Translations under genes and position numbers: made by a program
Notes under the pieces: model-generated
Database searches by the model: none
Told to the model about the DNA's origin: nothing
What the model saw: only the letters and a program-made list of their open reading frames with translations
Sequence record: MH675927.1
DNA length: 64,000 nucleotides
DNA from: Escherichia phage vB_vPM_PD114
Direction: 5' to 3' (one strand)
Shown here: in pieces, positions 8,127 to 11,911 of the stretch
How the letters are laid out: every line of letters begins with the position of its first letter
Numbering within the stretch: the stretch's first letter is position 1

Positions 8127-8558
8127 TTAATCAGTGAAAATTACGCTTACATCTTCTTTAGAGAAGAGTTTATGATCTTCACCTTTTGTCTCAAGAGTTT
8201 CATACAGGTTAAGAAGTTCTGAAACATCTTTCTCTACTAGTTTCTTCAATGTTGCAATTTTCTGTTTGCGATTTTTAATACGTTCAGCTACAACCTTACG
8301 TTGGTATCCAGCAGTACGATAACCTGAGAAAGTTACACCAGTAAGACTTGCAGTTACAGGATCGTAGTGACGTTCAATCTGAAATTTATTAAAAGGTACA
8401 GCGTCATCACGAATAATCTTACCGCCATTACTTACTTGACGAAGACCAGTAACTTGTTCCAGTCGTGCCATAGAAATCTTTGGAGACAGACCAGAGTCCA
8501 GGTTCATACCGTTGTTAATCAGTGCTTTCAGGGTGATTTTGCTGTTCAGTGTACTCAT
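8127..8558 (-). CDS. hypothetical protein
   Basis: 143-aa ORF directly downstream of the methyltransferase gene with 44-nt overlap; no recognisable motif. Confidence 0.4.
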   Translation of the reverse strand: MSTLNSKITLKALINNGMNLDSGLSPKISMARLEQVTGLRQVSNGGKIIRDDAVPFNKFQIERHYDPVTASLTGVTFSGYRTAGYQRKVVAERIKNRKQKIATLKKLVEKDVSELLNLYETLETKGEDHKLFSKEDVSVIFTD

Positions 8559-9246
8559 TTAGTCGTTCCTCCGCTTGCTTAAAAATATTTACATCGGCTT
8601 CACAGCCTAAGTATTCTCTACCTGTTAAAAGTGCCGCAACTTGTGTTGTTGCACTTCCAGAGAAGAAGTCTAAGACTACATCTCCTTCGTTGGTATGTAT
8701 ATTAATAAGGTCACAAAACAAAGTCAAGTGTTTTTGTGTTGGATGAAAACGATCTGCTCCTTGATAGATAGGATACTCAAACACACCCTTATGGTAGGAA
8801 GCATTGAAGGTTGGCTTCGAACCTTTAACACAAACAATAGCCATCTCTTTAGCGTTACTAAGGTAGTTAACACCACTGTTGATGGGTACAGGGTTTGTTT
8901 TAATCCATTCAATAGTACGGAACATACGAAAACCAAGTGGTTCAAGGATCTCACGTAGCTCCTGGATCTTCCAGATATCATACCAAACTATGCAAGTACC
9001 ACCTTTTCTAAGCACCCTATAGGCTTCTTTGAATACTTCTTTAAAGTAAGGAATATCTACAACATCCCAGTCACCAAAGTTGTAAGATACACGGAATCTA
9101 TCCGTATCTTTTCCAGTAGGCTCTCCAGATTGAAAATTTGTGTCACGAGAAATAGCATATGGTGGGTCAGTAAGAATCAAATCTACACTATTGCTTTCGA
9201 GGGTTTGCAGGTAGTTTAATGCAGTGTTGTTTACAAATTCGCTCAT
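8515..9246 (-). CDS. DNA methyltransferase (N6-adenine/N4-cytosine type, DPPY motif)
   Basis: Motif IV LILTDPPYA precedes motif I-like VVLDFFSGSATT (beta-class order); GGAG RBS; no adjacent restriction endonuclease recognised. Confidence 0.75.
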   Translation of the reverse strand: MSEFVNNTALNYLQTLESNSVDLILTDPPYAISRDTNFQSGEPTGKDTDRFRVSYNFGDWDVVDIPYFKEVFKEAYRVLRKGGTCIVWYDIWKIQELREILEPLGFRMFRTIEWIKTNPVPINSGVNYLSNAKEMAIVCVKGSKPTFNASYHKGVFEYPIYQGADRFHPTQKHLTLFCDLINIHTNEGDVVLDFFSGSATTQVAALLTGREYLGCEADVNIFKQAEERLNEYTEQQNHPESTD

Positions 9247-9253
9247 TATATCT

Positions 9254-9285
9254 CCTTCAAAGAAAAGGAGCCGTTAGGCTCCTTA
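9254..9285 (-). terminator. stem-loop, putative terminator or attenuator
   Basis: AAGGAGCC-GTTA-GGCTCCTT hairpin between stop of 9307-10254 and start of the methyltransferase; followed on the minus strand by TTCTTT. Confidence 0.4.
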
Positions 9286-9306
9286 TATTCACACAATATT
9301 TAATTA

Positions 9307-10254
9307 TTAGAAACAGTGCAGGAAGTTTCGACCATATTGCAAACCAATAGGAGCAAATGGGATATCATCATCGAAATCTTGAACAACAGGTTCTGGTTCT
9401 TTCGGTGCTGGCTCTTTCTTCTCTACTTTTTTAGTTTCTTTCTTAACTTCTTGTACTGGAATAGACATTCCACGGATAGCAGCAGCTACTTTATCAGACA
9501 AAGCAAGAACTTCACGAGCAGCTTCAATAATCTCTTCTGCCGTTACAGTTTTACCTGTATGATCACGACAAGCGTTAAGAATTGCGTGTCCAACTGAAGC
9601 ACCAAGATCATAGTCAGTCACATCAACGCCACGATCTTTAGCAATTTCAGCTTTCAGAGTAACAGTTGCAGATTGTACCACACCAGCCAAGTCGAAAGCA
9701 TCACCTTTCACACCAGCACGTAGAAGCTCCAGAGCGCCGTTTACAGCGTGTCCTGTTTCAATCCCTACGGTATCACGTTTTTTGTAGTTAGGCTTGCTAC
9801 CGTCATTATTAGATGGCTTATTTCCACCTTTTGAAGAGGATTGTGCTTGCTGAACACCTTCTGTTGAAAGAATAGTGATTTTACCTTTAGAGGAGTTGTA
9901 GTATGTTTTGCCATTCCATTCGGAAGGTTTAACATCCATAGTTAGTTCTACGCCTTTTTCGATAGTAACCCACTTATCACCATCTTTAACTTGCAGGTTT
10001 TCATGTTCTGGGTGCAGTTTAACTTCACCTAGGCTAACCCAAACACCTTTATCATCAGCACCAGCACCTTTCTCTTTAATAAGCAGAGATGCTTTGTGAG
10101 TTGATTCAATTTTCTTATCTGGTTGACCTGCAACCTTAATATAAGAGACTTTCATTTCATCAAACTTATCTAGTTTGACATATTCGACAATACCTTCAGC
10201 CCAGAATGCTTCTTTTTTAGTACGACGGTCGATTTCAGAATTAATTACTGGCAT
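9307..10254 (-). CDS. putative ssDNA-binding protein (SSB-like acidic motif DFDDDIPF near C-terminus)
   Basis: GAGGAG RBS; 315 aa; contains DFDDDIPF, identical to the E. coli SSB C-terminal tip, but followed by 15 extra residues (APIGLQYGRNFLHCF); adjacent to replication genes. Confidence 0.4.
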   Translation of the reverse strand: MPVINSEIDRRTKKEAFWAEGIVEYVKLDKFDEMKVSYIKVAGQPDKKIESTHKASLLIKEKGAGADDKGVWVSLGEVKLHPEHENLQVKDGDKWVTIEKGVELTMDVKPSEWNGKTYYNSSKGKITILSTEGVQQAQSSSKGGNKPSNNDGSKPNYKKRDTVGIETGHAVNGALELLRAGVKGDAFDLAGVVQSATVTLKAEIAKDRGVDVTDYDLGASVGHAILNACRDHTGKTVTAEEIIEAAREVLALSDKVAAAIRGMSIPVQEVKKETKKVEKKEPAPKEPEPVVQDFDDDIPFAPIGLQYGRNFLHCF

Positions 10255-10270
10255 AAATTCTCCTCTATAA

Positions 10271-10669
10271 TTACATTACTTTAACACAAAACTCTCGTAA
10301 AAGAGTAGCGTCAGTTTCTTCCAACAGGTATTTACCAAGACCAATACCAAATCCTATTTCACCACTTTCAAAATGGAGAATTTGTATCTTTTCTCCACCA
10401 AGGTTAATTACTTTTGCTTTTCCAGGATTGTCCAAAACATCTCGTATTGTGTCCTGTAGTAGCATTAGTTCACGTTTTGTGATAGTGGTTTCAGATATCT
10501 CTTTGTCTTCTACCCGCACTGTTAAACGGTTGTATCCACCAAAGAGACATAGTATTTGAATAAAAAAGGTATTATCTTGAGGTTCAACATCTTTTTTAGT
10601 TAGTTCAAGACGATTAGTTTCTCTACTGTAGAACGTCTCGACTAAGATTTTAGAACGATTGTCTGTCAT
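10271..10669 (-). CDS. hypothetical protein
   Basis: 132-aa ORF with GAGGA RBS; no recognisable motif. Confidence 0.45.
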   Translation of the reverse strand: MTDNRSKILVETFYSRETNRLELTKKDVEPQDNTFFIQILCLFGGYNRLTVRVEDKEISETTITKRELMLLQDTIRDVLDNPGKAKVINLGGEKIQILHFESGEIGFGIGLGKYLLEETDATLLREFCVKVM

Positions 10670-10712
10670 TCAAGTCCTCATAATAACACATAATTGTAAG
10701 GTTTGTCAACAC

Positions 10713-11314: not shown

Positions 11315-11911
11315 CTATCGTTTCCACTCTTTGTGTTGTTCTACATGCTCAAGCATTTCATTATATAGTGCTTTAAGATGTGGAACAACTCTTTCATCTT
11401 CAGTTTCAAAGAATTTTGTAAGCTGCTCTGCCTTAGCTTTCAACCAGCAAAGATGCGCTTCAATTTCAGTATTAAAACGTCCCAGCGTTTTCATGCGACT
11501 GCCTACTTTTATGTTGGCTTTATACTTTTTACGATCTTTCTCGTAACTACAGCCTACCATAGTCCCATGAGATCTTTTACTTACTCTATAAGCTAAGAAC
11601 TTATTAAGATCTCCTGTTACTAAAAGACAGGTATCGGGAGAGTAAACTCTCCCTCCTATAATATCTTTATCAAGTTCTAAGTTTTCCCAGTTATCCCAAG
11701 TTTGCAACCAGGAATAGAAATTGGAGAACAACTTCCATTCTTCACAAACCGTCACCCCCTTATAACAAGGATCACGTTCTTGTTGACAAGGGGAGTAACA
11801 CCTCCCCAACATAGCCATCCATTTCATATAATGCGGCGTTAGTTTCTTACTACCAGGTAGTGTACTCTCGCCTTCCAAATCATTAATACCTTCACTATAC
11901 ACGGTAAGCAT
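11315..11911 (-). CDS. putative homing endonuclease-like protein with AP2-type DNA-binding domain
   Basis: N-terminal WMAMLGRCYSP...YKGVTVCEEW block typical of phage HNH/AP2 endonuclease families; C-terminal YEKDRKKYKANIKVGSRMKTLGRFNTEIEA is AP2-like; adjacent to the DNA polymerase gene. Confidence 0.5.
   Translation of the reverse strand: MLTVYSEGINDLEGESTLPGSKKLTPHYMKWMAMLGRCYSPCQQERDPCYKGVTVCEEWKLFSNFYSWLQTWDNWENLELDKDIIGGRVYSPDTCLLVTGDLNKFLAYRVSKRSHGTMVGCSYEKDRKKYKANIKVGSRMKTLGRFNTEIEAHLCWLKAKAEQLTKFFETEDERVVPHLKALYNEMLEHVEQHKEWKR

Follow-up and report, generated by a model that had tools for sequence, protein, structure and literature searches.

The C-terminal tip of SSB (single-stranded DNA-binding protein) forms the docking hub at the centre of bacterial genome maintenance, and the accepted rule is that this tip must be the free C-terminus of the protein. 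The acidic tails of the SSB gp2.5 and the helicase-primase gp4 of phage T7 have Phe as their last residue and dock on the phage polymerase. Pockets for the SSB C-terminal tip (SSB-Ct) hold the Phe side chain together with its α-carboxylate (PMC3159472), and binding in the known pockets involves the free carboxylate of this Phe (PMC3159472; PMC7293020). When Escherichia coli SSB carries a fusion at its C-terminus, ExoI binding is abolished and the protein behaves as a dominant negative (PMC7293020). For phage HK620, recruitment of the phage annealase Sak4 needs the SSB C-terminal hexapeptide NDYPPF, not DDDIPF (PMC5928155). Here we describe an SSB-like gene at positions 9307..10254 of a 64,000-nucleotide stretch of Escherichia phage vB_vPM_PD114 (record MH675927.1; the whole stretch is referred to as the window). 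Its product carries the E. coli tip DFDDDIPF internally, followed by a peptide extension of a class that recurs on many phage proteins. All window features given below lie on the minus strand.

The internal tip and its extension

The gene, taken from the open reading frame (ORF) list, encodes 315 residues plus a stop codon and starts with ATG. A Shine-Dalgarno sequence, GAGGAG, rated good, stands ahead of it, and the ORF is real. Homologues include phi92 gp156 and gp090 of Escherichia phage vB_vPM_PD06, and the family corresponds to PHROG 4477. As the first-pass annotation had claimed, DFDDDIPF is internal: the ORF translation and a six-frame regular-expression scan agree in placing it at residues 293–300 (9355..9378), with exactly 15 residues after it, and the tip was also recovered in the PDB profile search described below. 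The C-terminus reads ...EPEPVVQDFDDDIPFAPIGLQYGRNFLHCF (in a longer excerpt, ...VVQDFDDDIPFAPIGLQYGRNFLHCF), giving an end of the form ...DFDDDIPFAPIGLQYGRNFLHCF-COOH, compared with ...DFDDDIPF-COOH for a protein that ends at the tip. A linker and the exact motif of the SSB family are thus present, yet the motif does not occupy the extreme C-terminus.

In all six frames, the window contains no tip-like motif other than DFDDDIPF, and the chance expectation of the exact 8-mer there is ~5e-6 (~128,000 positions x 20^-8). The match exceeds chance because relatives carry the longer E. coli string EPPMDFDDDIPF and because the family profile matches SSB tails in the PDB. This profile (43 homologues), compared with all PDB sequences, had as its sole matches the final 25 residues of SSB from E. 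coli (1eqq) and the tail of a second SSB, 7f2n, which confines the sequence similarity to canonical SSB to the tail. The tip is conserved to the same degree whether or not a family member has an extension.

The extension itself, APIGLQYGRNFLHCF, comprises residues 301–315 (9310..9354) and is followed by the stop codon at 9307-9309. It meets the definition of what is here termed class A, namely [AS]P[IVL][GT]L[PQM][FY] directly after ..[IVT]PF, followed by 7–10 residues with His/Tyr and a hydrophobic end, for a total of 14–17 residues (short pattern AP[IV][GT]L[PQM][FY]..H..). Among the best 100 clusters of the family, 78 end exactly at ...[IVL]PF and 22 continue, 20 of these with a class A extension. 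The form found within the family is [AS]P[IVL]GL[QPM]Y and then 7–10 residues with His/Tyr and a hydrophobic end, on carriers that range from 99% to ~30% identity to the query. Extended (310 residues) and unextended (295 residues) forms also share one 90%-identity cluster. The best-conserved part of class A adjoins the tip (IPF-AP-IGLQY), rather than the extreme C-terminus, and 43 of 44 in-frame matches to FAPIGLQY fit the class.

Across 35 distinct class A coding sequences, mean entropy in the extension is 0.77, 0.52 and 1.44 at codon positions 1, 2 and 3, respectively. Because variation is concentrated at third positions, the class A peptide is, by this measure, under purifying selection in the frame of its carrier. 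The extension of the window and that of the related phage nieznany differ at five of 48 nucleotides; every change is silent in the SSB frame, and two of the five alter a residue in an overlapping frame discussed below.

Class A extensions are present on proteins with other scaffolds. The canonical SSB of the lambdoid phage HK75, which has an oligonucleotide/oligosaccharide-binding (OB) fold, ends ...DFDDDIPFAPVTLPFPRHAIHAI, and the canonical SSB of Vibrio phage phiV039C ends ...DFDDDIPFAPVGLQYGRNLLHVI, each with class A after the tip; the SSBs of epsilon34 and mEp235 and an SSB of PHROG 743 carry it as well. A 691-residue primase/helicase of Klebsiella phages ends ...DDDTPFAPIGLQYAKHAIYVI, combining an SSB-like tip with class A (vB_Kpn_K54_rec3, L004 503-2566; also L273, L291 and L310). 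Sequence comparison thus shows the peptide to be portable between unrelated scaffolds. Different post-tip extensions were found on SSBs of PHROG 9002, PHROG 112 (gp2.5-like) and PHROG 378/2300.

The distribution of extensions was surveyed with DNA scans that demanded Ala-Pro after the tip. A scan of IMG/VR for DNA encoding DDDIPFAP gave at least 120 matches; among the 120 listed, 55 are class A and 38 are of the form AP[LMH]H[HY]L[AN]G[AVST], and the rest are shorter (for example, APEWR, APAWLI and APCM), some of these being the extensions on SSBs of PHROG 9002, 112 and 378/2300. The corresponding scan of bacterial genomes, with one genome per species, shows extension types that go with host groups among the matches listed. 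There, class A (22 matches) occurs in Escherichia, Enterobacter, Kluyvera, Lelliottia, Proteus, Sodalis, Tatumella, Trabulsiella, Atlantibacter, Idiomarina, Pseudoalteromonas and Oceanisphaera. The APLHHLAGA type has Pseudomonas as host in 19 of 20 named cases, and APISRLLLNII occurs in Pseudomonas, Stutzerimonas and Aquipseudomonas. APE[WVLT]R is found in the Rhizobiales (Rhizobium, Agrobacterium, Mesorhizobium, Bradyrhizobium, Devosia, Methylopila, Pararhizobium and Pseudohoeflea), APHFDGQF in Psychrobacter, and further types in Competibacteraceae, Gallionella, Kistimonas and Paenalcaligenes. The host groups of class A among the matches listed are Enterobacterales, Vibrio, Alteromonadales and Aeromonadales, and in the phage database the class occurs in phages of Escherichia, Vibrio, Klebsiella, Salmonella and Aeromonas. 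The four bacterial loci inspected resemble prophages, their neighbours including an integrase, Erf, Sak4-like ATPases or exonucleases.

A correlation between extension sequence and host clade is therefore shown at the level of sequence. One class sits on several unrelated scaffolds within one host group, which is hard to explain by descent of the carriers and indicates a host-linked function. An association of extension class with the type of neighbouring recombinase was considered and set aside: class A lies mostly beside Erf, but also beside Sak4-like ATPases and in replication modules, and the sample consists mainly of near-identical prophages. Within PLSDB, SSBs of F-like conjugative plasmids match the tip only, and the extension is found on non-mobilizable plasmids of 40–60 kb from Escherichia and Enterobacter, which are probably phage-plasmids.

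The first-pass annotation had treated the 15 residues as an unexplained add-on; they instead represent a conserved, selected and host-tracking peptide module common to many phage SSBs. This module character favours the option, among those it had raised, that the protein uses the motif differently, over a simple decoy or accidental read-through. Full-text literature searches (peptide strings, phage SSB tails, SSB-Ct mimicry, and the SSBs of rV5 and phi92) returned no description of a post-tip extension. The protein itself is not new, being encoded by many sequenced phages; it is the internal tip and the conserved, host-tracking peptide on many scaffolds that are undescribed in the literature searched.

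Scaffold, phage and genomic surroundings

The structure of the whole protein was predicted with AlphaFold2 using the family alignment, and the N-terminal domain was also modelled alone (predicted local distance difference test score (pLDDT) of 93), in both cases as monomers. The N-terminal domain (residues 1–130, 9865..10254; pLDDT ~93) is all-β and OB-like. It is connected by a disordered linker rich in Ser, Gly, Asn and Lys (residues 131–160, 9775..9864; pLDDT 45–65), which is variable in the family alignment, to a four-helix domain (residues 161–262, 9469..9774; pLDDT >90) with helices at residues 163–179, 186–208, 215–230 and 239–260. The four-helix domain is the best conserved part of the family, and its motifs GHAxNGA and YDLGASVGHA are invariant alignment columns. 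From approximately residue 261 to the C-terminus the tail is predicted to be disordered. The linker that precedes the tip (residues 263–292, 9379..9468; pLDDT 52–65) is rich in Lys, Glu and Pro, varies in length and sequence, and is analogous to the intrinsically disordered linker of SSB.

Foldseek matches of the N-terminal domain in the PDB are mostly OB-fold binders of single-stranded DNA: STN1, RPA32 (probability 0.98), RPA70, the MCM N-terminal domain, the SSB of lactococcal phage p2, and Rim1. The scores are weak: E values reach 0.13 at best with the domain and 5e-3 with the whole protein, and template modelling (TM) scores are 0.26–0.44 for the domain matches. Judging from the model, an OB fold is likely. 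Searches of the window protein against the PDB and BFVD with Foldseek gave only these weak OB-type matches and uncharacterised members of its own family, with no match that assigns the four-helix domain. For the body of the protein, no match was obtained in Pfam (E up to 1), in NCBIfam or with phmmer against all PDB sequences, and neither a hidden Markov model of the SSB family nor a PDB sequence places it in PF00436.

The label 'SSB-like' given by the first-pass annotation holds up by indirect evidence: the gene lies in the replication module, its N-terminal domain is predicted to be OB-like, although weakly scored, the disordered tail carries the host tip, no other SSB was found, and some relatives are labelled as such. 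Sequence similarity to canonical SSB does not extend to the body, which has no Pfam or PDB match to it. The search for another SSB, by tblastn of eight SSB scaffolds against the PD06 genome, with T4 gp32-type proteins not among the queries, recovered no second SSB and only the tail of this gene. Most probably, the gene encodes the SSB of the phage itself on a non-canonical scaffold (OB-like β-domain, four-helix domain and disordered tail), and its product would be expected to bind single-stranded DNA.

The window is 99.5% identical in nucleotide sequence to PD06, and the phage is a phi92-like coliphage of the genus Justusliebigvirus, subfamily Stephanstirmvirinae. Its protein is identical to one of phage PaulScherrer (tblastn) and shares a 90%-identity cluster with phi92 gp156. 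The PHROG 4477 profile, which is without functional annotation, matches the protein with E = 7.9e-101 and ends at residue 300, the Phe of the tip. Nearly every record gives the protein the label 'hypothetical protein', and a few name relatives 'single-stranded DNA-binding protein'. By megablast, 56 phage records span the full gene, 55 of them with at least 95% nucleotide identity; a sequencing or frameshift artefact is ruled out by the full-length gene in these 56 records. Four records labelled 'Campylobacter phage' (MG065639, MG065645, MG065656 and MG065689; A150, A145, C3 and A110a) contain genes ~98% identical to that of the window, and their host labels are probably wrong.

The replication module has the order primase/helicase, Pol I-type polymerase, HNH endonuclease, nucleotidyltransferase, a 132-residue ORF, the SSB-like gene and a DNA methylase. 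The 132-residue ORF (10271..10669; PHROG 16560) lies directly upstream of the SSB-like gene and is kept in phi92-like and phAPEC8-like phages; in one rV5-like phage an ORF of similar size holds its position. A promoter-like site, TTGACA-18-TATTAT (10680..10709; 11 of 12 consensus positions matched, TG present; identified by consensus match only), and a terminator-like hairpin (9265..9284; a stem of 8 bp and then a T-run) shortly downstream of the SSB-like gene flank these two genes. The 132-residue ORF thus appears to form one promoter-to-terminator unit with the SSB-like gene, and its product may be a partner of the SSB-like protein.

The slot behind the SSB-like gene (8127-9246) holds an N6_N4 DNA methylase gene (8515-9246; PF01555) and an overlapping 143-residue ORF (8127-8558; PHROG 20244) in the window, an endonuclease gene in nieznany and nothing in phAPEC8. 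Because its content differs among the three, this slot is regarded as a hot spot for accessory genes. The HNH endonuclease gene (11315-11911; PHROG 953) lies between the genes for the Pol I-type polymerase and the nucleotidyltransferase. An HNH endonuclease is annotated at the matching place in PD06 and nieznany and not in phAPEC8, a second presence/absence polymorphism of an endonuclease in this module.

Possible functions of the extended tail

The tip and the extension may act as one bipartite linear motif that steers the phage SSB to a particular partner, a reading that we prefer while giving it slightly less than an even chance. It fits best because the tip is kept and the residues that follow are conserved and host-tracking. 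The disordered tail of the phage protein copies the host docking tip DFDDDIPF. Since SSB-Ct pockets hold both the Phe side chain and its α-carboxylate, the internal tip should dock poorly in generic host pockets, such as those of ExoI and RecQ, where burial of the carboxylate would weaken binding. The host-tracking extension would then add a second contact, redirecting the phage SSB to a particular partner and excluding generic ones. The putative partner could be encoded by the host, as a factor found specifically in Enterobacterales and Vibrio-type hosts, or by the phage, as a protein that tells the phage SSB from the host SSB; we infer this altered selectivity as well as the existence and identity of the partner.

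Several observations weigh against this proposal. The extension is predicted to be disordered (pLDDT ~52) and gives no structural hint. Close relatives that infect E. coli, such as phAPEC8, lack it, so that replication in that host can do without it. Classes as short as APEWR hardly seem large enough to form an independent docking site. The OB assignment leans on weak Foldseek scores (best E values of 5e-3 with the full-length query and 0.13 with the N-terminal domain; TM scores of at most 0.44). The IMG/VR and bacterial scans demanded Ala-Pro after the tip, and their figures hold among the matches listed; the correlation with host clade could also partly reflect phage lineages that are confined to their hosts.

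The first-pass annotation had also raised proteolytic trimming. The extension would then be a pro-peptide: a host or phage protease would cut after Phe300 and free a normal SSB-Ct tip when or where it is needed, with the conserved sequence serving as the recognition site. Such processing would agree with a tip as strictly conserved as in members that end at IPF, with the Ala or Ser, usually followed by Pro, that comes directly after the Phe in nearly all family extensions, and with host-clade-specific sequences, which could suit host proteases. However, 15 conserved residues make a long leaving group, short classes such as APEWR and APCM would be odd pro-peptides, and relatives that end at IPF obtain a free tip without cleavage. 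No protease or cleavage motif is known for the site, and the literature searches gave no paper on one. This explanation is considered improbable.

Comparably improbable is a pure mask, or dominant-negative cap, by which the extension would do no more than block the Phe carboxylate and so prevent DNA coated with the phage SSB from recruiting host nucleases, helicases and restart proteins, the tip being kept for intramolecular regulation of DNA binding. The α-carboxylate is part of recognition (PMC3159472), and the fused E. coli SSB that no longer binds ExoI is dominant negative (PMC7293020); the existence of several unrelated extension classes is also what would be expected if the exact sequence mattered little. 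Yet a cap needs neither 15 residues kept across divergent carriers with mostly synonymous change nor classes that track the host, and loss of the tip would achieve the same, whereas the tip is kept.

An endonuclease gene at the extension provides a further explanation, in which the peptide would be a neutral hitch-hiker: it would either have arrived together with a homing-type endonuclease gene inserted directly after the tip codons or mark the site where such a gene lands, the window retaining a scar after loss of the endonuclease. The SSB-like genes of phAPEC8 (unextended) and nieznany (extended) have ~99% identity as far as the tip's Phe codon and are unrelated beyond it. In nieznany, the extension and a gene for a 164-residue endonuclease (L005 4905-5399) precede a tail-protein gene; in phAPEC8 there is only a terminator in this place. 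The ATG of the nieznany endonuclease lies in the extension, within CAATATGG, 26 nucleotides before the stop codon of the SSB-like gene. The same overlap, with a homologous N-terminal zinc finger, is found in Mt1B1_P17, in contigs L022/L023 (17 nucleotides before the stop codon) and in the rV5-like phage JES2013 (L146 3044-3667). These overlapping genes, which occur in three phage groups and are of the zinc-finger/HNH or endonuclease VII type, match PHROG 2340 and 1035, whose annotations are endonuclease and endonuclease VII. Six alleles without the extension have no endonuclease gene, and no downstream gene at all on that strand.

The window has no endonuclease ORF that overlaps the extension. 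It retains an out-of-frame ORF, MVETSCTVS followed by a stop codon (9306..9335), whose ATG lies in CAATATGG and whose first six codons (MVETSC) match the nieznany endonuclease; this frame stops after nine codons, and the next gene, the N6_N4 DNA methylase, begins 60 nucleotides on, past the terminator. The extension DNA of the window is ~89% identical to that of nieznany, compared with ~40–83% per 60-nucleotide block in the rest of the gene, a difference that suggests exchange of the 3' end of the gene between the two genera. The endonuclease has the look of a homing element whose landing site is the tip and extension codons; a homing-type element uses the extension site and probably contributed to the spread of the extension in this group of myophages. 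In phAPEC8, the 3' untranslated bases behind the stop codon (TAATCTTATTGATTTATAAAGAG, L006 4886-4910) resemble the nieznany extension codons at ~10 of 19 positions, which may reflect the decay of a former extension or coincidence in AT-rich DNA.

The cassette accounts for the spread of the extension among these myophages and not for the conservation of the peptide, since class A is common without a nearby endonuclease (HK75, phiV039C, L052 and many prophages) and it is the SSB frame that is under selection, with variation falling at third codon positions. The differences between the window and nieznany likewise preserve the SSB frame and not the endonuclease frame. Conservation solely through an overlapping endonuclease gene is ruled out on the same grounds, there being none in the window, and a neutral hitch-hiker seems to us quite doubtful.

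Equally doubtful is a C-terminal degron, whereby hydrophobic ends (..HCF, ..HAI, ..YAL and ..AGA) would mark the phage SSB for a host AAA+ protease and thereby control its amount or lifetime: every class does end in small or hydrophobic residues, in loose resemblance to the known C-terminal degrons of ssrA, MuA and SulA, but conservation is strongest next to the tip (IPF-AP-IGLQY) rather than at the extreme C-terminus, and there is no evident reason for host-specific degrons when the proteases are conserved across hosts. A β-clamp-binding motif, suggested by the similarity of PVTLPF and PIGLQY to QLSLPL-type motifs, was not adopted, as sequences that vary with host clade argue against a universal pocket.

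The bipartite motif can be extended to a bolder proposal, which we regard as unlikely. Post-tip extensions would constitute a general, host-clade-specific addressing code on the SSBs, and sometimes the helicases, of phages and phage-plasmids. The generic hub motif would thereby be made private, hijacking a clade-specific replication, restart or repair factor or shielding phage DNA from host nucleases and SSB-sensing defences, and a homing endonuclease family would have specialised on landing there.

Many natural phage proteins break the free-C-terminus rule in a conserved, selected and host-tracking way. If the extension does retarget the tip, it would reveal how the SSB network of a phage is kept apart from that of its host, and would point to a further binding partner, which could be a host factor, a defence sensor or else a nuclease that the phage has to avoid. 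It would also offer short peptides that modulate SSB–protein interactions, which are already pursued as antibacterial targets. For annotation, the result concerns phi92 gp156 and the homologues in rV5, phAPEC8 and PVP-SE1, which are still mostly 'hypothetical'.

Comparison with known systems

The best structural matches, the eukaryotic OB-fold subunits RPA32 and STN1, resemble the predicted structure of the window protein in having an OB-like barrel followed by a helical domain. The scores are weak (best E value of 5e-3; TM scores of at most 0.44), identity is ~10%, and no homology is claimed.

E. coli SSB (PF00436) shares DFDDDIPF identically, and EPPMDFDDDIPF with relatives of the window protein, and in both proteins the tip ends a disordered linker behind a domain of DNA-binding type. 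The presumed role, to coat single-stranded DNA and to serve as a docking hub, would also be the same. The two differ in that the body of the window protein has no PF00436 or PDB match, that it contains an additional four-helix domain, and that its tip is not C-terminal.

The SSBs of lambdoid and Vibrio phages (HK75, epsilon34, mEp235 and phiV039C), which end ...DDDIPFAPVTLPFPRHAIHAI or ...APVGLQYGRNLLHVI, carry class A after the same tip. Their bodies, in contrast, have an OB fold of the PF00436 type and are unrelated in sequence to the window protein; their extension is likewise undescribed in the literature searched.

With T7, the parallel lies in the proteins that bear the tail: the same tip and extension occur on SSB-like proteins and on the Klebsiella phage primase/helicase, as the acidic tail does on gp2.5 and gp4, and another post-tip extension occurs on a gp2.5-like SSB (PHROG 112). 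Whereas the aromatic residue is the last one in T7, 15 residues follow it in the window protein. The primase/helicase of the window phage itself lacks such a tail in the six-frame scan, and class A is also found in lambdoid phages without a polymerase gene.

The HK620 SSB is, like the putative SSB of the window, a phage protein whose C-terminal tail departs from that of the host SSB, in its case tuned to a partner, and many extended SSBs adjoin Erf or Sak4-like genes. It differs in that its tail still ends in Phe, and the window gene lies in a replication module, not a recombination module. T7 gp2.5 and gp4, together with the HK620 SSB and Sak4, thus provide precedents for phage SSB tails that are tuned to particular partners.

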